The notes below the pieces were generated by a model. The model was given only the letters and a program-made list of their open reading frames with translations. It ran no database searches and was not told the origin of the DNA. From Candidatus Vampirococcus lugosii (GTDB lineage: Bacteria > Patescibacteriota > Gracilibacteria > Absconditabacterales > Absconditicoccaceae): a stretch of DNA of 26,300 bases. Of the stretch, positions 1 through 11,677 are shown in pieces. The translations under genes were made by a program, and so were the position numbers. The stretch spans positions 1-26,300 of the forward strand of contig NZ_JAEDAM010000005.1 in assembly GCF_018420025.1 (NCBI RefSeq). Direction: 5' to 3'. Positions within the stretch are counted from its first letter, which is position 1. Each line of letters begins with the position of its first letter.

Positions 1-297
1 TGGCAAAACAATAATCCAGAATGATGGTTCAAAAGTTTCATAGGAATGTTTTTGAAATTAAATACAATACAATATTATGGAGAGGTAGAGAATTTGAAAT
101 GAAGAAAAGATTTAGTGATACCGATAAATAACAAGTATTACATAATAGAGGCGAAAGTAAATAATAGTGCAAAAAAAGCGATAGAACAAATAAATAAAAA
201 ATATTTACCACAGTTTAGCGAAGATGACGAGATAGTAAAAATATGAATAAATTGGAATAAAAAATGATGAGAATTTGATGTTGTTTATGAAAAATAA
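1..297 (+). CDS. PD-(D/E)XK nuclease-family protein, C-terminal fragment (PDDEXK_9-like; 5' end outside window)
   Basis: Frame 1 is open from the window edge with TGA=Gly. Translation: ..YYGEVENLKGRKDLVIPINNKYYIIEAKVNNSAKKAIEQINKKYLPQF..VKIGINWNKKGGEFDVVYEK*. The E-x-GR-D / IIEAK core and the AIEQI..KKY..kiGinf tail are typical of the restriction-endonuclease-like domain at the C-terminus of AAA-ATPase-like/PDDEXK_9 proteins. TAA at 295-297. Confidence 0.7.
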
Positions 298-527: not shown

Positions 528-1901
528 TTATGGTACTCTAAGACATCATTTTCCGTCAAAACAATATCAAGCATTTGAACCATGTGCTACCATTTTTCAA
601 TCTATACTAAGAGCAGTATCTGGAGATCCACTTGTATGAGGTGCCATACCTATACCAACTCATTTTTCAACTTCCAACCGTTTAAAATCTACTGGTTCAG
701 TAACTATCAATGTTCAATCTATAAAAACATCTCAATCTACATTAGTATTTTTTAAATTTGTATTTCATCAAACTGTTAAATGTTGATTTAAAGTTGTATC
801 TCATCAAACTGTTAAATCTTGATTTAAATTTGTATCTCAATCTACTTGTAAATCATTCTTCAAATGTGTATTTTCTTCAACAGTTAAATCTTGATTTAAA
901 TTTGTATCTCATAAAACTGTTAAATTTTTATCTAAAGTTGTATTTTCAGTTACATTCAATGTACCATCTATATTTGTATTCTTTAAATTTGTATCTCATA
1001 AAACTGTTAAATTTTTATCTAAAGTTGTATTTTCAGTTACATCCAATGTACCATCTATATTTGTATTTCAATCTACTTGTAAGTTTCACTTTATTGTTGT
1101 AAGTTCAGATGGGTCACTTATATTTACAGTACCTCTAATATTTGAACTATCAGACGGACTATTTCATAAAGTAGTATTTCATCAAACTCTTAAATTTTTA
1201 TCTAAAGTTGTATTTTGAGTTACATCCAATGTACCATCTATATTAGTATCTCAATCTACTTGTAAATCATTCTTCAAATGTGTAAAATCTTCTACAGTTA
1301 ATGTTCAACTCATTGTTGTATTTTCATCAACATGTAAATTATCCTTCAAATGTGTAAAATCTTCTACAGTTAATGTTCAACTCATTGTTGAATTTTCTTG
1401 TACATGAAGATTTTGTCTTAAATTAGTATCTCAATCTACTTGTAAATTATCCTTCAAATGTGTTTTTTTAGTTACATCCAATGTACCATCTATATTTGTA
1501 TTTCAATCTACTTGTAAATCATCCTTCAAATGTGTTTTTTTAGTTACATCCAATGTACCATCTATATTTGTATCTCTATCTACTTGTAAATCTCTACCAA
1601 TATATGTATCACCACTATCAGCACTTATACCAAAAGTTCTATTATAAGTACCACTACTAGTACCAGTAAATGTTTGAAAAGTTTCATAATTTGATCAACT
1701 TCAAGCATTTATTTCAAGTCTTGTATTTCAATCAATTCTTCAATTATGTTGGAAAAACATATGTTTTATATATGCCTTTGTATTATCAATATGCTGTTTA
1801 ATTGTTAAATCAGCAGAAAAAGATATCGCAAATATCAAAAAAGAAGATACTCAAAATCATAATATATACTTATAGTTATTACTATTTATTTTTGTTTTCA
1901 T
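528..1901 (-). CDS. Secreted/anchored repeat protein, 457 aa; octapeptide (L/V-x-V-x-G/E-N/D-T-x) beta-helix/fibre-like repeats
   Basis: ATG at 1901, TAA at 528-530, length 1374 nt (a multiple of 3), open only with TGA=Gly. The N-terminus has a hydrophobic signal/anchor (YILGFGVSSFLIFAISFSA). The body is repeats such as THLKDDLQVDGNTNIDGTLDVTKK and NLTVLGDTNLKNTNIDGTLNVTENTTLDK. C-terminus: ..VGIGMAPHTSGSPDTALSIDGKMVAHGSNAGYCFDGKGCLRVP*. Confidence 0.8.
901..1067 (-). repeat. In-frame tandem repeat, 80-bp unit with 87-bp period (29 codons)
   Basis: 901-980 and 988-1067 are identical except for one base (tacatTcaat vs tacatCcaat). Both lie inside the 528-1901 CDS. Confidence 0.9.
1272..1390 (-). 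repeat. In-frame tandem repeat, 72-bp period (24 codons)
   Basis: The 47-bp string cttcaaatgtgtaaaatcttctacagttaatgttcaactcattgttg occurs identically at 1272-1318 and 1344-1390. Confidence 0.9.
1431..1573 (-). repeat. In-frame tandem repeat, 72-bp period (24 codons)
   Basis: 1431-1501 and 1503-1573 match over 71 bp with one mismatch. They encode duplicated THLKD(D/N)LQVDGNTNIDGTLDVTKK. Confidence 0.9.
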
Positions 1902-2076
1902 ATTTTTTTATTTTTATATATATAAAATATTATTTTTTAATAAAATAATTAAATACAACAATATTATATAAACTTTTTTTTATTTGTCAAACTATTTTTA
2001 AACTTTTTTGTAATAAAATTAAATTTTAAATAATATGTATAAATAGAATTAATTTTAAAACTGTTTTACACTTTTT

Positions 2077-2604
2077 TTATACTAATTTAAATAAATTATC
2101 TTTTAAAGATTTTCTCAATAAGTTTATTATTTCATTTAAAGATCAATAAAAAATTTCTTTTTCTTTATCATTACAAAAACTCATTTTTAAATTTTCAGGC
2201 ATAAAATCAATTATAGATGAATCAACTCAATCAAAAAAAGATTTATCAAAAACTTCATCTTCATACATTATATATTCCAAAAAAATTTTAAATTCTTGAT
2301 TTGTATTTTCAAGATTTGACATATTAATTCAAAATTGATTTGTTTTTTCTATATAAGGCATTATAGAAAATAATAAATCATTAATAATTTCAATATTTAT
2401 TTTTCATTCATCATTCAATAAATTTTTTATATATGGAACTATACAATTACAATTATGTAAATTTATATAAAACCATAATTTTATAAATTCACATTTAAAT
2501 TTTTTTAATTCCAAATTATCTTCCAATTCAGAAGAAAAAATTTTTATCAATCAATGATATTTTATTTTTTTTAAATTATTATCTTCATTCATAATCTCTT
2601 CCAT
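2077..2604 (-). CDS. Hypothetical protein, 175 aa (last gene of the four-gene cassette)
   Basis: ATG at 2604, TAA at 2077-2079, 528 nt, open with TGA=Gly. It starts 12 nt after the stop of the upstream 738-aa gene. Translation: MEEIMNEDNNLKKIKYHGLIKIF...KCEFIKLWFYINLHNCNCIVPYIKN...LRKSLKDNLFKLV*. I recognise no family. There is a small C/H cluster (C-x11-H-x-C-x-C). Confidence 0.6.
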
Positions 2605-2616
2605 TTTTTTTAATAA

Positions 2617-4833
2617 TTATTTAAATGTAATATGTAAACCAAAATTTCTTTTTTGAAATATGATACTAAATCAATCAATATCTAATTCATAAACTTTATT
2701 AAATACATCAGATGTAAACAATCAAATAATTATATTTTCAATATTTTCAGATATTTTTTGATTTATAAAATCTATGTATTCCATATAATTTATATTATTA
2801 GATTTCATATAAAATGATATATTATTTAAATATCAAAATTTATATGCTTTTATAAAATTTTCTTCTAATTTTTGATTTAATCATACTATTCATTTACTAA
2901 CTTTATTAAAATATATATCCAAATTCTCTTCTACAGATTTTATTATTAATGTATTTAATTCCAATGAATTATATAATTCATATGAATCATCAACTTCTTG
3001 ATAAGATAATGATAATCTTCATTTCATACCAGATTCTTTTAATGATTTATCTACTTTTTTAATTGTACTAAATACAAATTTTGTTCATCTTATGAAAATA
3101 TATAATTCATCTCATCAAGCACTTAATTCTATATTATCTCAAATTTTATCAGAAAGAGATTTTATAAAATAATTAAATTGTGATGTAACTAATGATCAAG
3201 TTGATAATAATATATCTTCATCTTTATTGATTTTATAATCTTTTATAGTATTTTTAAAATCAGAAAAATTCATAATTCACATATCTTTTATATCTACAAA
3301 TATTGAAATTCAATTTTGTGATTCTATATTTTGCATAAATTTATCTTTTGATAACATTCATTTATGAGAATGTGTTTGCAAAAATTCTATTCTTTTTATT
3401 TCTTCTTCATTTATTTCTTTTCATTTAAGATATGAATCTAATATTTCATTATCTCTATTTGCATCTTGTAAACTTTTATTTATATTTTCTCATCAAGGAA
3501 AAATAAAATCAAATCAATTATTTAATCCAAGCAAATATTGTTCTATATACCAATTTAAATAAAAATTTTTTGATTTAATTTCTTTTCATTTTCTTTTAGC
3601 TCTTATCAAAGCTGGATTTATAACTTTTTCTCAATCAATTTTTTGAGAAATTACAGGAAAAGTTTGTCAATCTAATTCAAATTCCTCTCATTCAAGTAAA
3701 AATATTTCTTGTTGAAAATAATCAAATTTTCTCATATTCTTTTCTATAATATCATAATTAGTATATTTTATAGGATATTTATTTGAATTTTTGGAAGCTA
3801 ATTCTGCTTGTCTAATTGCATGAACTTTTTCAGTATCTTTATTTAAAGAAGCTATATTTGTATATCAAATTCAAATATCTATTTTTCTCAATACTTTTTT
3901 TATTTTTATTTTTTCTCATTCGGGTAATATATTTAATAACTTATCTGATTTTATTACTTGATTTATTATTTGTTCTCTAGAATCATAAAATAATTGCAAT
4001 ATTTTATTTTCACAATTATTACTCTTTATATTAATTACAAGATTTTTGTAATCATTTTTTATTGTAATATAATTTTTTTGAAATTTCATTTCTATTTTTT
4101 GATAAATATGTTCTTTGATAATATCCATAAAAATATCTACAAAATTTTGTCAAAGATTATCATTCAAATATTTTATATTTTTGAAACTAAATCAAATCAA
4201 TACAGAATTTTCCTTTATTTTCATTATTGATAATAGAGGATGTAATTTTTCTATATTTTTTTTTATTTCTATTTTATCATTTAAATTTTCTTGTCAGTAT
4301 TCTTGTTCAGATTTTAAATCTTCTTCTTCATAGTTATCAATTAAATTTTCATTACTTGAATTTTTAAATCTTTTAAAATTTTTTGAAGTTTTATATTTTA
4401 TATTGGCAGAAAATTTTGATAATTTATAATTAAGTTGCATACTTCATCTTATAATTCATAATCAAGCAAATGGGATTGTTAATATAGAGGATATACTTGA
4501 AACTAATCATCAAGCAGTCCGATTTTCTTTATTTCTAAATAATTTTAATATATCTATTACATTTTCATTTGTTTCTTTATCAGTAATTATATTCATCAAT
4601 CAAATAATTGGATGCATTTTTCCTAATTCTTGTTTTTTTATATCAAATTCATATCAATTTTTAATTCTATAATATAAATATTGTGGTAAAGTTTTGATAA
4701 GTAATGGTATATCAGCAATAATTTTCAATATATCTTCAGCTAATTCAGGTGCTTCAAGTGATATTGCTAACAAAACTCATTTTCAAAATCATTTTTCTCA
4801 ATATTTTTTATTTAAAAAAATGTTTAGATTCAT
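2617..4833 (-). CDS. 738-aa protein with tandem GGDEF/Cas10-like palm modules (first degenerate, second with intact D...GGDE motif); putative nucleotide cyclase
   Basis: ATG at 4833 (in-frame stop upstream at 4858-4860), TAA at 2617-2619, 2217 nt. The standard-code ORF 3916-4128 lies in the same frame. Module 2 reads ISIFVDIKDMGIMN (D codon 3292-3294) ... NIELSAGGDELYIFIRG (GGDEL at 3103-3117) ... GRLSLSY. Module 1 (about 3760-4200) reads VLIGFSFKNIKYLNDNLGQNFVDIFM ... YITIKNDYKNLVINI ... KIDIGIGYTNIA..KVHAIRQAELASKNSNKYPIKY. It keeps the FKxxNDxxG...D...L and SiGiG...A..AK..G frame of GGDEF domains but lacks the catalytic D and GGDEF residues. Confidence 0.7.
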
Positions 4834-5347
4834 CACTAGATAATTTTGAATTAGACTTTAACATAGCTTGTTTTATAGTTTCTCATCATCTTATATTTTT
4901 TATCCATTTGCTAGGACTTGCAAAATAAATAAAATTTAGATCTCTATCTACACTTTCAAATTTATCTAATCATCATAAATTTATAATATCTATTATTCAT
5001 TTATTTAAATATTCAATATAATTTTGAAAATCATTTATTAATATTTTTCATTCTCTATTCATAAAATTATTTATATTAAATTGATTTATATATCAATTTT
5101 TATTTGAATCTAAATTAAAACTATTTAAAACAAAATCAATAATATCTTTATTTAAATTTTCTATAAATTCTTTGGAATTATAATAATCCAACGATTCTTC
5201 ATCTTCAAATTTTTTTATTTCATTACTAAAATTTGTTACAATTTTTTTAATTGTATAATAAGCTTCTTGTTTTGTTATAATCTCAGGATTTTGTTCATCA
5301 TTTTCTATAAAATTTAATCAATTTTTTATTTTATTTATTGAATTCAT
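4808..5347 (-). CDS. Hypothetical protein, 179 aa (second gene of the cassette)
   Basis: ATG at 5347, TAA at 4808-4810, 540 nt, open with TGA=Gly. Its 3' end overlaps the start of the 738-aa gene by 26 nt. Translation: MNSINKIKNGLNFIENDEQNPEIITKQEAYYTIKK...NLGGLDKFESVDRDLNFIYFASPSKWIKNIRGGETIKQAML...*. No family recognised. Confidence 0.6.
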
Positions 5348-5372
5348 TTTAATTTCACAAAATTATTTAAAT

Positions 5373-5552
5373 TTATTTTTTATTTTTGATTAATTTTTTA
5401 TTTAAATCATCACTTTCATTTATCATTTCAATAATATTTGTTTTTTGAAAATCTGATAATTTATGCCAATTTTGTAAAATTAAATTTTTTACTTCATTTT
5501 TTATAATTATAGATTTATTAATTTTTTCAATAATTTCATTATTAAGCTCCAT
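5373..5552 (-). CDS. Small hypothetical protein, 59 aa (possible first gene of the cassette)
   Basis: ATG at 5552, TAA at 5373-5375, 25 nt upstream of the next gene on the same strand. Translation: MELNNEIIEKINKSIIIKNEVKNLILQNWHKLSDFQKTNIIEMINESDDLNKKLIKNKK*. It is short and low-complexity, so the coding status is uncertain. Confidence 0.4.
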   Translation of the reverse strand: MELNNEIIEKINKSIIIKNEVKNLILQNWHKLSDFQKTNIIEMINESDDLNKKLIKNKK

Positions 5553-5899
5553 AACAAAAAGTTACTACATAAATTTCAATTATTATAATGATTTTTTTAA
5601 TTTTTTCAAATATATATTATCTAATCATAATATATTTATTAAAAATAAATAAAAAAACTTATATTACTCATTGAACATAAAAGCAAAAATATTCTATTAA
5701 AATTACTTGAAACAAATTGGTTAAATAAAATAAATTGATAATGATATTTGAAAATTATTGTTTTTGATAGTTTATAACTAGCTTTTTTAATATTTTTCTT
5801 TTTTTTTTATAAAAACTTAGATATAGATGTCTTGATTTTTTAGATTAAAACTATATAAGTTTATATATTTTATATATTAATTTTAAAAAAACAAATATT

Positions 5900-8017
5900 A
5901 TGATAAATAAATTACAAATAAATGAAATTTCAAAAAGTATATTGTGGGAATGAAAACAATTTGAAATAAAAACTTGAAAACTTGCAAGTCAAGCTGATGG
6001 ATCGGTTGTAGTTAAAATATGAGATACTTCCGTTTTGGCGACAGCAGTAATAAATAAAAATCCAGATGAAAATAAAGATTTTATGCCACTAACTATAGAT
6101 TGTAGAGAATCTTTTTATGCTGGTGGTAAAATTTGATGAGCTCTTTATATAAGAAGAGAATGAAGACCATCCGAACAAACTATACTTACAGCTCGTCTTA
6201 CTGATAGACCTATAAGACCTATGTTTCCAGAATGAATGATAAATGATGTAGTAATTGCAATTACTCCTTTGAGTGTAGATAAAGAAAATTGAATATGAAT
6301 TCCTAGTATTATTTGAGCAAGTTTAGCAATAAATTTAGCTTGAATACCTTTTGAATCTGAAGTTTGAGCTGTAAAAATTTGATATAAAGATTGAAATTAT
6401 ATAATAAATCCAACTTATCAAGAAGTAAAAGAATGAATATTAGAACTTACATTAGCTTGAACAAAAGATGCAATTACAATGGTAGAATGTTCTGCAAATG
6501 AAGTTTGTGATGAAATATTATTGGAAGCTTTTAGAATATGACAAGAAGAAATAAGAAAAAATTGCGAATTACAAAATGAATTTTTGAAAAATTTTGAAAT
6601 AGAAAAAAAAGAAATAATAACTAATAAACCTAGTAAAGAACTTATTGAAAAAATAGAAAACTGTTTAAAAATTGAAGAATTAAATAAATTAATACCATCT
6701 AGCAAAAAAGAATTTAATAATCAATCAGAAATTATAAAAAATATAATATTTGAAAATTTTAAAAATGAATTGGAAGATGAAAATAATAAAGAAATAACAA
6801 AAATTAAATTATGATCTTGAGTTTTTAAAGTTATAAAAAATTTTATTAGAAAAAAAATACTAGAAGAAGAAAAAAGAGTTGATTGAAGAAAACTTGATCA
6901 AATAAGACCTCTATATTGTGAAACTTGATTATGAAATAATAGAATTCATTGAATATGACTTTTTCAAAGATGAGAAACACAAGTTTTCAGTGCAACTACA
7001 TTATGAGCACCTTGAGATATTTTATTAGTAGATGATATGGAATCTGATGCTATAGAACAAAGATTTATGCATCATTACAATATGCCTTGATTTAGTACAA
7101 ATGAAGCAAAATCATCAAGATGAGCTAGTAGAAGAGAAATTTGACATTGAAAATTAGCAGAAAAAGCATTGGAAGCAATGATACCAAGTGAAGAAGATTT
7201 TCCTTATACATTAAGAGTAGTTAGTGAAGTTTTCAGTTGTAATTGAAGTACATCTATGGCAAGTGTATGTGCAACTACCCTATCATTGATGGATGCATGA
7301 GTTCCTATCAAAAATCCTGTAAGTTGAATAGCAATGTGATTAATTACTGATTGAGAAAAATTTAAAATTTTGACTGATATACAGTGAGTAGAAGATTTTA
7401 CATGAGATATGGATTTTAAAGTTGCTTGAACTAAAAATTGAATTACTGCTCTACAAATGGATATGAAAATAAAATGATTAAGTTTGGAAATAATAAAACA
7501 AGCAATACAAAAAGCAAATACTGCAAGATTAGATATTTTGGATTTTATGTTGCAAACTATTGATAAACCAAATGAAGAATTAAGTATTTATGCACCCAAA
7601 ATTACAAAAATAAAACTTAAAGCTAGTCAAATTAGAGAAGTTATATGATCAGGTTGAGCAAATATTAATGAAATCACAAAAGAAACTTGAGTTAAAATAG
7701 ATTTTAAAGAAGATTGAACAACAATAATTACTGCAAAAGACACAAAATCTTGAGAAGAAGCTATTAAAATGATACAAGAAAGTATATGGTCTCCTGAAAT
7801 ATGACAAATCATAGAATGAAAAATCACTAGAATAGAACAATATTGATTATTTGTTGATATTGGAAAAAATAAATCATGATTATGTCATGTAAAAAATATT
7901 TGAAAATCTTTTGTAAGTGATCTAAAAACTATGTACAAAGAATGACAAAAAATTAGAGTTAAAATTATATGAATTGATGATAATAATGGTAAAATTGACC
8001 TTAGAAAAGAGGATTAA
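5900..8017 (+). CDS. pnp: Polyribonucleotide nucleotidyltransferase (PNPase), 705 aa
   Basis: ATG at 5900, TAA at 8015-8017. With TGA=Gly the translation gives [104 protein letters not shown], and a C-terminal KH/S1 region (GSGGANINEI..; [16 protein letters not shown]). Confidence 0.95.
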
Positions 8018-8047
8018 TTTTTAATAAATTAAATAATTAATTATAAA

Positions 8048-8353
8048 ATGAATACAATATTTGAAATATTTAAAATAATATTTTTTATTCTTTCTATTAT
8101 TATATGATCATTTTTTTTGAGATGAAATTATTATTTTGATAATAATAGCTTTGAAACTATATGAATGATATTAATGCCATTATATTTATTGATAGTTTGA
8201 GTTATGATATGATATATAATAGCAAGTTTTTTGATTGTAAAAAATGATTTGGAAAAATGAGATTCATCCGAAAATAAAATTTATATACAAGGTTTTGTAA
8301 TATGAACAATTATTTGAGTATGAATAGCGATTTTGTATTTAGTAATGTGATAA
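8048..8353 (+). CDS. Small integral membrane protein, 101 aa
   Basis: ATG at 8048, TAA at 8351-8353. It has three hydrophobic segments (IFKIIFFILSIIIGSFFL; IGMILMPLYLLIVGVMIGYIIASFLIV; GFVIGTIIGVGIAILYLVMG). It lies 30 nt after pnp. Confidence 0.65.
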
Positions 8354-8359
8354 ATATTT

Positions 8360-8908
8360 ATGAAAAAAATATTTTTATATATAATCTTATTATCTTTACC
8401 TTTTTTGACATGATGTTTTGAGTCTGAAAATAATCAAACAGTAGAATTTGATTGATTTGTTATGGAAATAAATGAACATTTCATCCCTATATCAAGTGGA
8501 ACATTTGATTGACAACAAATACAAAATAAAATAATAGCAAGTTACAAAATTGATAGTCTTGAAGACATATACAAAGATAATTTAATAATAAGTAAAAATA
8601 AATTAAATAATAAAATAGATCTGGAAACATATACACAAGCAAATTATAATAAATTAAATAAATGAATTACAACATTAAATAGTATAGAAAACATAAAAAA
8701 ACTTGATTTTGAATGTAAAAATGATAAAATAGATTGATATTATTCAAAATATGAAGTATATGATTCTATTTTTGATGAAGATACAAAATATTATATATTA
8801 CAATATTATTTTATAAAAGATGATAATTGATATATATTATCTTTTAGTTCATGAGAAGATAGATTCTCAGAATTTATAAAAAATATTTGAACAATTTCTT
8901 GTAATTAA
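8360..8908 (+). CDS. Lipoprotein, 182 aa
   Basis: ATG at 8360, TAA at 8906-8908. The N-terminus MKKIFLYIILLSLPFLTGCFE has a lipobox L-T-G-C, where the G is a TGA codon (8411-8413). Confidence 0.75.
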
Positions 8909-8932
8909 TTTTATTATAAATATATAATTATT

Positions 8933-9703
8933 ATGCAAAACAATATTATTATAGAACCAAATAATCCTACTTGAATGTCAATATTACGAAAATGAATAAT
9001 GTGAATTATAGTATGATTGATGCTTGCATTTTTTATTTTCATTATGTATACAGTTTTTTCTTGAGTATTTAGTACAGCATTATCTTCTACTATGAGTGAA
9101 AATTGATGAGCAAATCCACTTTTATCATTAATAATAATGATTATCTGATTTTTCTCAGCAATAATAGGTAATATGATTATATTGATAATGTATAATTTAT
9201 TTTTCTCAAATAAATATTATGATTTATGAAAAATGATTAGTTTATCTTTAATTACAAATATATTTTTATTTTTTTCTATATCTATAATTTATATATTATT
9301 CAATAAGGAACCACAAACATTACTTTTAATACTAGCATTTCATATTATCTTTGCAAATTTTTTATCTTATATAATAATAGAAATATTTACAAATCCAAAT
9401 TATTCAGGTGTACATTTGATAGGTTGAACAATATGAATTAGTCTTACAATAATAATTTTTTTAGTGATTTATAATTTAAATAGTATATGACCATCTTGAG
9501 ATTGAGCACATATATTAATAATAGTACCTCCTATTTTAGTATATACTATATTACCAGTTTTTCATACCATATGGGAAAAATTATATTATAAATTTTATGA
9601 AACTTGAAATAATTTTTTGTATATACCTAGTATAGATGAAGTATTAGTAGATGAAGATGAAATTGAAGATGTAAATGTAGAAGATATTAATGTAGATAAT
9701 TAA
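8933..9703 (+). CDS. Polytopic membrane protein with acidic C-terminal tail, 256 aa
   Basis: ATG at 8933, TAA at 9701-9703. The standard-code ORF 9233-9427 is in the same frame. It has at least six hydrophobic segments. The tail reads ..SIDEVLVDEDEIEDVNVEDINVDN*. Confidence 0.75.
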
Positions 9704-9744
9704 TTAAATACTAAATAAATTTAAAACATAATATAATATAATAT

Positions 9745-10110
9745 ATGTTATTTTATCATATATGATCTTTGATTAAAATTATAATTGGTTTTGCAATATT
9801 ATATATAATATATAATTATATAAATGTTTACCAAGATCCTATAATTGGACTTGGTTTTTGATTTTTTTGATTATTCTTGATATCATGGTGAATTAGTTTT
9901 TATATTTTTTTTATATGATATAAAATATTTTCAAAAAAAGATAATATTTTAATATCATCAAAAAGTTATAAAACTTCATTATTATTTTGATTTTATATAA
10001 TTATAAATACATCTTTAATAATAATGGAAAATCGAACACAAACTATATGAATTGTAACAATAGTAATATTTTTATTTTTACATATATTAACAATATTGGA
10101 AAATGAATAA
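9745..10110 (+). CDS. Small membrane protein, 121 aa
   Basis: ATG at 9745, TAA at 10108-10110. It has four hydrophobic segments. The stop overlaps the next gene's start (ATGAATAA). Confidence 0.6.
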
Positions 10111-10402
10111 ATTTGAAATAATAGAAGATTTATTGCAAGAAGTATATGATCCAGATTTTCCTGCTATAGATATATATAATTTATGACTTATTCGTGATAT
10201 AAAAATAGAAGAAAATTATATACAAATAATAATGACACTTACAACTCCTGCATGTCCTTCAGCAGATTTAATTATGAATTTAGTAGAACAAGCTATAAAT
10301 GATGAATACCCAAAAGATAAAGTAGAAGTAGAATTAACATTTGATCCACTTTGGTCACCAGATATGATTAAAGATGAAGATTTAAAAAGAATGTTTGAAT
10401 AA
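10103..10402 (+). CDS. DUF59/MIP18-family Fe-S cluster assembly protein (SufT/PaaD-like), 99 aa
   Basis: Translation: MNKFEIIEDLLQEVYDPDFPAIDIYNLGLIRDIKIEENYIQIIMTLTTPACPSADLIMNLVEQAI...FDPLWSPDMI. The V.DPE.p.di..LGLi and T.T.p.CP motifs are diagnostic of DUF59. Confidence 0.85.
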
Positions 10403-10431
10403 AAAATTTTAAATTAAAATTATCAATATTT

Positions 10432-11103
10432 ATGGACAAAAAACAAATAGATAAATCTATATGATTAATACAATGATATTATAAATTTTTATATTTATGA
10501 TTATTTTTGGAAAATATAATAAAAGAAAATGATATTAGTCAATTTGCAAAAGATATAAATATAAAAACTTGAACAAAAACTAGTTTTAAACTAAACGAAA
10601 AAACTATTCAAAAATTATTAAAAGAAATTTATAATAATCCTGATAAACAAAATATATTTTGATATTTTACTGAATTAACAATGTTTAGATGAATTTCATC
10701 AACTATGAAAGAATTATTGGATAACAACAACGAATTTAAATATTTTATAAAAGAAAGACTTTGAAATAACTATTTTCATTTTGATCAAATAATAAGATTT
10801 ATAAGAAATGTACTTTCTCATAATATAGATACAAATATACTTATCAAAACTGAAGATTATGAAAGTCAAAAAATATATTTATTGTACAATCAATGACCAT
10901 TAATTAATTTTGATTTTAAATATAAAAAAAGTTTTGATAAATACCGAAAATGAAATAAAGATTATTGATTAAAAATAAAAATTAATTTCAAAAAACTCTC
11001 TCATAATGATAAATTCTTTAATATAATATCTATACATGATTTATTTATGATTTCAGAATTATGTTATAATATGATAGAAATATATAAATATGAATATAAA
11101 TAA
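10432..11103 (+). CDS. Hypothetical protein with HEPN-like R-N-x3-H motif (Abi-like), 223 aa
   Basis: ATG at 10432, TAA at 11101-11103, open with TGA=Gly. The central segment is FDQIIRFIRNVLSHNIDTN (RNVLSH = Rx4H). The rest is helical and lysine-rich. Confidence 0.6.
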
Positions 11104-11200
11104 AAATAAGTCAAATAATTTATATACAAAAATATTAGTTGAATTTCTTTTTTTAATTTATAATATATGGAATATCTTTTATATTTATAATATATAATTT

Positions 11201-11677
11201 ATGTTTAAATTGGTTTTATGAAATTTAATAAAGGTTATTAAATCACCTTTTCCTATGTTTTTATGAATTATTGCTTGAATTACAATATACTTTGTAATTA
11301 ATCATTTTATGGATTATATGCATATATTGGGAAATCAATGATTGCTTTATGCAAATATTGAATATTATTGAAATTATGTAATAGCAGTATTATTTGGGTT
11401 AATTTTTGCTTCAAGTTCTTATAAAATATTTTATTTTGGTTCATTTAATGCAAAAGAAAATAGTTCAAGTATATTATGAAGTTTCTTAAGTCTTATATCA
11501 ATATGATGTCCAGCTTGTTGAATTACTATCGCTTCATATATTTGACTATCATGATTAATATTATCTCTTCCATACTCTTGAATTGAATTGAAAATATTAT
11601 GAATATTAATTATGTTAATATCATTATTTTTTACATTAAAAAATCTAGAAGTTTGCAAAATGAAGAAAAAGAAATAA
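11201..11677 (+). CDS. Membrane protein with intramembrane CPAC (CxxC) motif, 158 aa
   Basis: ATG at 11201, TAA at 11675-11677. It has four hydrophobic segments, with SLISIGCPACGITIASYIGL in the third. The antisense standard-code ORF 11431-11658 is an artefact. Confidence 0.7.

Follow-up and report, generated by a model that had tools for sequence, protein, structure and literature searches.

The locus considered here, at positions 2,077 to 5,552 of the first 26,300 nucleotides (nt) of contig NZ_JAEDAM010000005.1 from Candidatus Vampirococcus lugosii (that whole stretch is referred to below as the window), raises the question of whether it encodes an undescribed nucleotide-signalling or conflict system. 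The original prediction, which was made from the sequence alone, described a compact cassette of four genes in which three small proteins accompanied a large cyclase-like protein with two palm domains. Comparison with an independent assembly and with related loci reduced this cassette to a pair, one large gene and one small downstream partner. On balance, and with some reserve, we favour reading the pair as a two-gene signalling module characteristic of TGA-recoded bacteria from the candidate phyla radiation (CPR; Absconditabacteria and Gracilibacteria), in which a two-palm protein would synthesize a nucleotide signal and act together with the small partner.

Genetic code and gene structure of the locus

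The product of the 738-amino-acid (aa) open reading frame (ORF) was 100% identical to a "hypothetical protein" of Candidatus Vampirococcus lugosii at NCBI and bears the UniRef name "GGDEF domain-containing protein". Long ORFs covered 31 kb when TGA was read as a sense codon, versus 3.6 kb under table 11. The meaning of TGA was read from the adjacent gene for polynucleotide phosphorylase (PNPase), in which the 53 TGA codons were masked and the product was aligned to solved PNPases (5yjj). The masked positions fell almost entirely opposite glycine and never opposite tryptophan, as for example in "REGRP", "GDMDFKVAGTKDG" and "REIGHG". TGA therefore encodes glycine, and table 25, with which the original prediction had proposed to translate the locus, is right for the window. 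The same table was used in the paper describing the Vampirococcus genome (PMC8080830). Under this code the four minus-strand ORFs of 59, 179, 738 and 175 aa were present as described, with junctions of 25, -26 and 12 nt. The features of the locus are as follows.

2617..5347, minus strand: tandem-palm GGDEF-like protein gene, 909 aa, from the assembly with six T residues (T6) and alignments across the junction
5347-4808, minus strand: 179-aa ORF, N-terminal part of the 909-aa gene
4833-2617, minus strand: 738-aa ORF, remainder of the 909-aa gene
4814-4820, minus strand: homopolymer of seven T residues (T7), source of the apparent frameshift and of the 26-nt overlap; T6 in the independent assembly
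2077..2604, minus strand: 175-aa partner gene, 12 nt downstream of the large gene, of a fast-evolving family
5552-5373, minus strand: 59-aa ORF, a doubtful gene outside the conserved module
5582..5609, minus strand: sigma-70-like promoter match (11/12), upstream of the 59-aa ORF

The independent assembly was the Logan assembly of run SRR13241708, contig SRR13241708_96 of which (9,004 nt) was aligned to window positions 1598-10602. The sole difference in 9,004 aligned bases was T6 for T7 at 4814-4820, and with T6 the 179-aa and 738-aa ORFs join into a single 909-aa ORF (P0002). Alignment of the 909-aa protein to a 1005-aa homologue produced a single high-scoring segment pair across the junction (residues 63-332 versus 65-351, E = 4e-10). 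In the curated alignment (A11) the junction "SSDESKHF·LNKKYGEKGFGKGVLLAISLEAPELAEDIL" matched the unbroken ORFs of standard-code relatives column by column. Homologues of 1031-1058 aa were common, and full-length forms included P0004, P0005, P0007, P0011 and P0096; as judged from these alignments, the fused single-gene form is the norm for the family. The Vampirococcus genome was assembled from DNA amplified by multiple displacement amplification and by the MALBAC method (PMC8080830), so that a homopolymer miscall is the simplest explanation of T7, and the large gene of Vampirococcus is likely to be intact. A real frameshift at T7, perhaps rescued by slippage, is the possible alternative. Translational coupling had been read from the 26-nt overlap, but this reading does not survive, because the overlap is created by the frameshift in the T7 run inside one gene, and the locus holds at most three ORFs.

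With respect to the 59-aa ORF, scans of Pfam, PADLOC and NCBIfam assigned no family, and no counterpart was present upstream of the large gene in 13 related loci, an apparent upstream ORF in one of them being a tRNA gene. An ORF of at least 59 aa is expected by chance in 5.6% of Markov-1 simulated regions of equal length and composition. The 59-aa ORF does not belong to the conserved unit, and its status as a gene is doubtful. The promoter match at 5582..5609 is possibly that of the operon, although the evidence is weak; the total of promoter matches in the region equalled the shuffled expectation, so this one is a positional hint only, and the promoter and terminator scan was uninformative in such AT-rich DNA. 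The four-gene cassette accordingly came apart, one supposed partner being the N-terminus of the large protein itself and another being unconserved.

Fold, active-site residues and family of the large protein

A model of the 738-aa protein was built with AlphaFold 2 (AF2) from a 76-sequence alignment; residue numbers refer to this protein unless the fused protein is stated. The model had a mean predicted local distance difference test score (pLDDT) of 80.5 and a predicted template modelling score of 0.77, with pLDDT >90 for nearly all residues 180-738. Residues 210-348 and 507-646 each formed a beta-alpha(-alpha)-beta-beta-alpha-beta-alpha unit, such that the palm fold on which the original prediction depended is present twice in the predicted structure. 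The same two-palm core was reproduced in a second AF2 model, that of the full 909-aa protein with W at the TGA codons. The parts of the protein are listed from the N-terminus.

4339..5347, minus strand: N-terminal module, ~335 aa, all-helical, containing the whole 179-aa ORF (alignment A11, AF2, hydropathy)
3784..4221, minus strand: palm unit 1, catalytically degenerate, residues ~205-350 (AF2 pLDDT > 90)
3319..3783, minus strand: middle alpha+beta domain, residues ~351-505 (AF2)
2884..3318, minus strand: palm unit 2, the putative catalytic unit, residues ~506-650 (AF2, conservation, Protein Data Bank (PDB) profile hits)
3106..3117, minus strand: GGDE catalytic motif, codons TGA-TGA-GAT-GAA, read from sequence and translation
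2620..2883, minus strand: C-terminal alpha/beta domain, function not assigned, residues ~651-738 (AF2 pLDDT 81-92)

Conservation was counted over up to 76 homologues sharing ~20-30% identity overall. Palm 2 carried the aspartates D514 (75/76) and D517 (62/76), N522 (75/76), the G-G-D-E motif (G573 in 72, G574 in 75/76, D575 in 76/76 and E576 in 75/76) and, further on, R606 (72/74), K632 (72/72) and E635 (70/72); the residue following GGDE was I, V or L rather than F. Near-invariance of these residues at such low overall identity is the pattern of a working active site, and palm 2 looks like a catalytic centre that lacks a conserved base-specifying position. The middle domain contributed conserved basic residues (R414 in 69/74, K415 in 73/74 and K491 in 76/76) and had no sequence relatives in the PDB.

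Palm 1 was conserved in a different manner. K221 (64/64), N224 (64/65) and D233 (65/67) were retained, as were Y262 and K263 (63/70), while the metal-binding aspartate positions were S216 and S218 in the window protein and a conserved D-Y-K stood in the place of GGDEF. Palm 1 could be aligned position by position with the motif of the cyclases, 'DxDxFKxiNDxxGHxxGD' (E = 0.016). In GGDEF enzymes the Asn reads the sugar face of the base and the residue nine positions on reads the Watson-Crick face, Asp at that position giving GTP specificity (PMC6456294). In the large protein this guanine-reading pair, N224 and D233, sits in the non-catalytic palm 1, and palm 2 has the Asn (N522) only. Given that the pair is kept and the metal ligands are lost, palm 1 resembles a pocket for a guanine nucleotide in which the metal ligands needed for catalysis are missing.

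Profile searches of the PDB matched GGDEF cyclases only, with E = 4.5e-4 for the whole core, 0.016 for palm 1 and 0.05 for palm 2. By Foldseek the top matches were Cas10, tandem class III cyclases and GGDEF domains; the single GGDEF domains 3mtk and 6eib superposed at a target-normalised template modelling (TM) score (TMt) of 0.53-0.65, and among viral structures only generic palm and GGDEF matches were obtained. The first PDB alignment had suggested a single GGDEF domain with an insertion of ~300 residues, a possibility that was discarded since palm 2 is topologically complete and carries a beta-1 Asp of its own. The AF2 model, Foldseek, profiles and conservation thus agree with the earlier description of an uncharacterised, tandem-palm, cyclase-like protein with a GGDEF/Cas10-type motif.

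In the model of the full 909-aa protein the first ~340 residues were helical, with low confidence (pLDDT 40-68). Hydropathy identified two conserved hydrophobic segments in this N-terminal module (fused-protein residues ~202-220 and ~281-299), which were present in all full-length homologues. These two stretches make membrane tethering plausible, and the large protein is probably held at the membrane through this module. When 17 of the C-termini joined to the module in other proteins were scanned, FHA (3), PP2C (1) and calcineurin-like phosphoesterase (Metallophos; 1) domains were found; its recurrences (P0055, P0058, P0060, P0066, P0074-P0076, P0081 and others) also include SH3-like domains, and one protein bearing it came from a standard-code Peregrinibacterium. 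It is an uncharacterised module of CPR signalling proteins and is probably membrane-associated. Its union with signalling domains argues against a role in toxin delivery, and a polymorphic-toxin architecture (constant N-terminus, variable C-terminus, downstream immunity gene) was rejected on the nature of the variable C-termini, namely FHA, PP2C and Metallophos. A profile of the module, run against a word-indexed database, matched only the 179-aa ORF itself, the UniRef label of which is EF-hand domain-containing. Relatives do contain an EF-hand-like loop ('DIDGEKGLDKFE' / 'FDIDGEKGLDKFEF' in alignment A11), of which the window copy is degenerate (~5050-5090, minus strand; fused residues ~90-105). 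An EF-hand identity, suggested by this label and likeness, was not supported by Pfam, none of 10 N-terminal modules giving an EF-hand hit at E <= 1.

The family was collected by an exhaustive HMMER search from a three-sequence seed and comprised 163 representative clusters, 52 of these with E < 1e-30, with no prior annotation. Most members contained 5-8% Trp and <1% Gly, which on compositional grounds is the mark of organisms with TGA as Gly whose genes were translated with table 4. The named sources were Gracilibacteria metagenome-assembled genomes, Candidatus Absconditicoccus praedator and a Peregrinibacterium. The N-terminal module and the C-module occurred together in 8 proteins, all eight from recoded organisms; the C-module was found alone in 54 proteins (median 657 aa) and the N-terminal module with other C-termini in 38. 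Scans of all four window proteins against Pfam, PADLOC and NCBIfam returned nothing significant, and the small proteins are, as had been stated, without assignable family; NCBIfam scans of correctly translated homologues gave GGDEF hits below threshold only. The GGDE motif reads as stop-stop under the standard code and as WWDE in most database copies translated with table 4, and it is partly because most copies are mistranslated in this way that domain libraries have not seen the family. A standard-code homologue from DNA of 58.5% GC (L011:4001-8843) has the C-module only (624 aa). It lies ~1 kb upstream of a PAS-domain gene and a gene for an EAL (cyclic di-GMP phosphodiesterase) protein, and at no other locus did a cyclic-dinucleotide gene lie close by.

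The partner gene and its genomic setting

When searched alone against 5.8 billion proteins, the 175-aa protein matched only itself, and neither it nor the downstream proteins of related loci had a Pfam match. In A. praedator (locus L015), which has the closest characterised relative of the large protein, a 190-aa gene follows 4 nt after the large gene. Its product was similar to the 175-aa protein by BLASTP (E = 1e-7), and a profile of the downstream proteins of A. praedator and L013 matched the 175-aa protein by hhalign (94.6%, E = 7e-8, 105 columns). A same-strand gene of 126-250 aa lay directly downstream of the large gene in 12 of the 13 related loci. Among the 10 loci with a measured gap, nine fell between -22 and +12 nt and the tenth had 98 nt; two further loci have gaps of 4 and 11 nt on the assumption of a start at an internal ATG, as worked out from the translations. 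The best BLAST relative of the window protein, P0006 (752 aa), is encoded at L014:3001-6069, where an extremely acidic ORF on the opposite strand occupies the place of the partner.

The downstream proteins fell into three similarity groups, {window, L013, L015}, {L002, L009, L012, L007, L008, L010} and {L005, L006}. These coincide with clades of the large protein, and the pair is therefore co-inherited. By sequence comparison the small partner diverges faster than the large protein. Hidden Markov model and hhalign comparisons of the 175-aa protein with the main downstream family were not significant; after grouping the 175-aa protein with the downstream proteins of L013 and L015, P = 0.011 was obtained versus 0.56 for the reversed control, which is only suggestive of a relationship between the partner groups. 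Of the small genes that had been expected to co-occur with the 738-aa protein, then, the 175-aa gene does so, whereas the 179-aa "gene" is the large protein's own N-terminus.

The genes around the pair were surveyed in the window and the 13 related loci, with the following neighbours.

Window: pnp
L008: ftsA-ftsZ, a pseudouridine synthase
L010: RNase R
L015 (A. praedator): recJ, prepilin peptidase
L013: a GTPase, an HD protein, recG
L012: chorismate mutase
L004, L005, L007: ribosomal protein S1, ABC-F ATPase, CorA, serS, Tex, a chemoreceptor

The neighbours were housekeeping genes and differed from genome to genome. Only the pair itself was kept, so that the wider neighbourhood, the conservation of which had been proposed as a check, is not conserved. 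Neither cas genes nor restriction systems nor any other defence genes adjoined the pair in the window or the 13 related loci. PADLOC found nothing in the window proteins or in correctly translated homologues, and NCBIfam gave no Cas10 hit in either set. The defence systems listed in the Vampirococcus genome paper do not include this locus, and the type III CRISPR system of the organism is encoded elsewhere in the genome (PMC8080830). Co-inheritance of the pair within clades of the large protein looks like vertical descent and not like a mobile island. The accessory or defence context that had been suggested was therefore not borne out, and the data, as comparisons of sequence and gene order, do not support a defence system.

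The idea that a phosphohydrolase recurs beside the pair (pnp, RNase R, recJ, HD, EAL) was given up, since other loci carry S1, serS, ABC-F or CorA in that place. Genes of methyl-accepting chemotaxis type lie near the pair at L002:14906-16423 and L007:8221-9840, which may be coincidence; that of L007 has a PAS domain and is located on the opposite strand directly after the small partner. Homologous genes of ~135 aa precede the large gene at L002:7358-7768 and L009:153-560 and are not found in the window. In L002 an oppositely oriented metallo-beta-lactamase-like gene separates the ~135-aa gene from the large gene.

Further features of the window are these.

5900-8017: pnp (PNPase), adjoining the module
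1-297, plus strand: PD-(D/E)XK ORF (PDDEXK_9, E = 8e-8), open at the window start
528-1901, minus strand: 457-aa repeat protein with 'DGDTNLxQDLxV'-type repeats (Bactofilin, E = 1.2e-12; left-handed beta-helix model)
1990-1963, minus strand: sigma-70-like promoter match, perfect (12/12), preceding the 457-aa bactofilin-like gene

The gene for PNPase does adjoin the cassette, as had been noted. The PD-(D/E)XK nuclease fragment corresponds to a plus-strand ORF at the start of the window, which seems truncated by the contig end rather than decayed. The supposed hypervariable surface-fibre gene is by its family matches that of a bactofilin/beta-helix-like repeat protein, which has a hydrophobic N-terminus. 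Downstream of pnp, at 8048-11677, the plus strand carries a series of short ORFs (99-256 aa), most of them hydrophobic, for which no confident family was obtained except for a FeS-assembly-P-type protein at 10103-10402.

A candidate signal synthase and its alternatives

GGDEF cyclases (PleD, DosC and the Hypr GGDEF enzyme GacA; PF00990, TIGR00254) are the sole family matched by sequence profiles. The large protein shares with them the palm fold, the beta-1 metal Asp and G-G-D-E hairpin within one domain (palm 2), and the Lys, Asn and Asp of 'FKxxNDxxGHxxGD' (palm 1). In contrast to these enzymes, which are homodimerising and single-domain, it has two palms in one chain with a ~155-residue domain of unassigned type between them, and the catalytic and base-reading motifs are divided between the two. 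The family also scores under the curated thresholds, has no RxxD I-site, has I, V or L in place of F, and possesses its own N-terminal module and C-terminal domain. The best Foldseek matches, over ~590-670 aligned columns, were to Cas10 (Csm1/Cmr2; 3w2w, E = 2e-5). The likeness is one of architecture only: in both, a degenerate palm is followed by an intervening domain, then by a catalytic palm bearing GGDx and lastly by a C-terminal domain, with the catalytic centre in just one of the two palms. Unlike Cas10, the large protein has no HD domain and no sequence similarity to it (PDB profile searches return no Cas10), and no cas genes or CRISPR array occur nearby in any of the 14 loci. Tandem class III cyclases (soluble adenylyl cyclase; the C1-C2 membrane adenylyl cyclases), among the top fold matches as 4cm0, 9u3p, 8bv5 and 6yii, are likewise single-chain pseudo-heterodimers with one active and one degenerate site, but there is no match at the level of sequence and the motifs of the large protein are of the GGDEF type.

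Degenerate GGDEF domains such as that of Caulobacter PdeA (CC3396) have lost catalysis and bind GTP allosterically, thereby controlling the neighbouring EAL phosphodiesterase. This type of domain is a plausible model for palm 1, with the difference that the domain regulated would here be the second palm and not an EAL domain. By the reading we favour, the helical N-terminal module would tether the large protein to the membrane, perhaps as a sensor or scaffold, and the two GGDEF-type palms would form a single-chain pseudo-heterodimer. Palm 2, with its metal-binding Asp and GGDE, would be the catalytic half, and palm 1 would most likely hold a second (acceptor) nucleotide or an allosteric GTP, by analogy with Cas10 and the C1-C2 adenylyl cyclases. 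From the division into one dead and one live palm, as in those enzymes, we infer that nucleotides are joined at one catalytic centre into a signalling di- or oligonucleotide, which would probably contain guanine. The 175-aa protein would be a small helical partner, most likely a regulator or the first receiver of the signal. The module would belong to endogenous signalling and not to mobile defence. A more far-reaching version, which we regard as doubtful but worth stating, is that a CRISPR-independent synthase with a Cas10-like layout and a GGDEF-like sequence makes an undescribed signal nucleotide in TGA-recoded CPR bacteria, both characterised predatory Absconditabacteria among them, with the membrane-tethered N-terminal module and the partner coupling envelope or host-contact cues to that signal. 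If this were true, the product might be a linear or mixed-base di- or oligonucleotide, for example, and the protein would represent a living intermediate architecture between homodimeric GGDEF cyclases and Cas10.

Several results weigh against a signal synthase with a partner. With respect to the family assignment, PF00990 was reached by only 1 of 15 members (E = 3e-5), the 738-aa protein is without a Pfam or NCBIfam hit, and TIGR00254 scored 17.8-24.1 bits versus a cut-off of 37.4. With respect to the fold, TM-scores to Cas10 were low (0.15-0.19), and comparison of palm 1 and palm 2 profiles detected no homology, so that the fold of palm 1 depends on the AF2 model together with a brief motif alignment. 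The specificity-equivalent position of palm 2 (551) is variable, which makes any assignment of the substrate tentative. The N-terminal module was modelled with low confidence, hydropathy being the sole ground for membrane insertion, and a genuine T7 would mean that the gene of Vampirococcus may be split or in decay. One of the 13 related loci, L014, has no same-strand downstream partner. No riboswitches were detected in the window or in 9 loci, and no nucleotide receptor or dedicated phosphodiesterase was found.

An anti-phage or conflict system, with the palm enzyme making a signal on infection and the small proteins serving as sensors or effectors, would account for a palm synthase of Cas10-like two-palm layout that is tightly linked to a rapidly diverging partner, such divergence being common in conflict systems, and for partners without known function. 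Systems of this kind, mCpol/Panoptes and CBASS, do place a palm-type or nucleotidyltransferase signal synthase beside a small partner (PMC12657218, PMC12657230). The locus differs from these in having no PADLOC hit, no effector domain and no defence-island context, and it also differs from mCpol, which is small, has one palm and works with a membrane effector; we consider this explanation distinctly unlikely. None of the partners carried a domain of the nuclease, TIR, pore, protease, CARF or SAVED-like type, in agreement with the earlier remark that canonical effectors and sensors could not be recognised, and two of the three supposed partners fall away. Also opposed to it are the empty PADLOC results for the window proteins and their homologues, the varying housekeeping neighbours of the 13 loci, the co-inheritance of the pair within clades, and an N-terminal module held in common with FHA and PP2C signalling proteins.

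The two remaining alternatives concern the chemistry of the palms. The protein could act on nucleotides or RNA as a template-independent nucleotidyltransferase or ligase, a Thg1-like 3'-5' adder or a GTP cyclohydrolase III-like hydrolase. The palm fold is common to such enzymes, and GTP cyclohydrolase III (2qv6) and polymerases or reverse transcriptases were among the weaker fold matches; moreover, R414, K415, K491, R606 and K632 could bind a polyanionic substrate and genes of RNA metabolism adjoin the pair in several loci (pnp, RNase R, S1, Tex). These RNA-related neighbours are, however, inconsistent between loci, sequence profiles match GGDEF cyclases only, and palm 1 retains precisely the Asn and Asp with which diguanylate cyclases read the nucleobase, which leaves this possibility improbable. 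A non-catalytic nucleotide receptor or scaffold, comparable to the degenerate GGDEF domains of LapD, PelD and FimX, seems very improbable. Palm 1 is indeed degenerate yet keeps its nucleotide-reading residues, LapD was among the fold matches, and I, V or L stands where GGDEF has its F; but retention of the metal Asp and G-G-D-E of palm 2 in 72-76 of 76 homologues at ~20-30% identity fits an active and not a decayed site.

These findings bear on how such genomes are read as well as on the protein itself. The deposited annotation cuts one gene into two at a homopolymer, both glycines of the GGDE motif of the Vampirococcus gene are TGA codons, and neither Pfam nor NCBIfam nor PADLOC recognises the family. 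The practical lesson is that "small uncharacterised partners" in such genomes need comparative checks before they are called a system. CPR bacteria are thought to possess very little signalling machinery, and we know of no work on second messengers of the nucleotide type in Absconditabacteria or Gracilibacteria. Should the enzyme prove active, it would be a signal synthase specific to this lineage and shared by both known predatory Absconditabacteria. The combination of a dead and a live palm in a single chain is relevant to the origin of two-palm enzymes such as Cas10 from cyclase-type domains.

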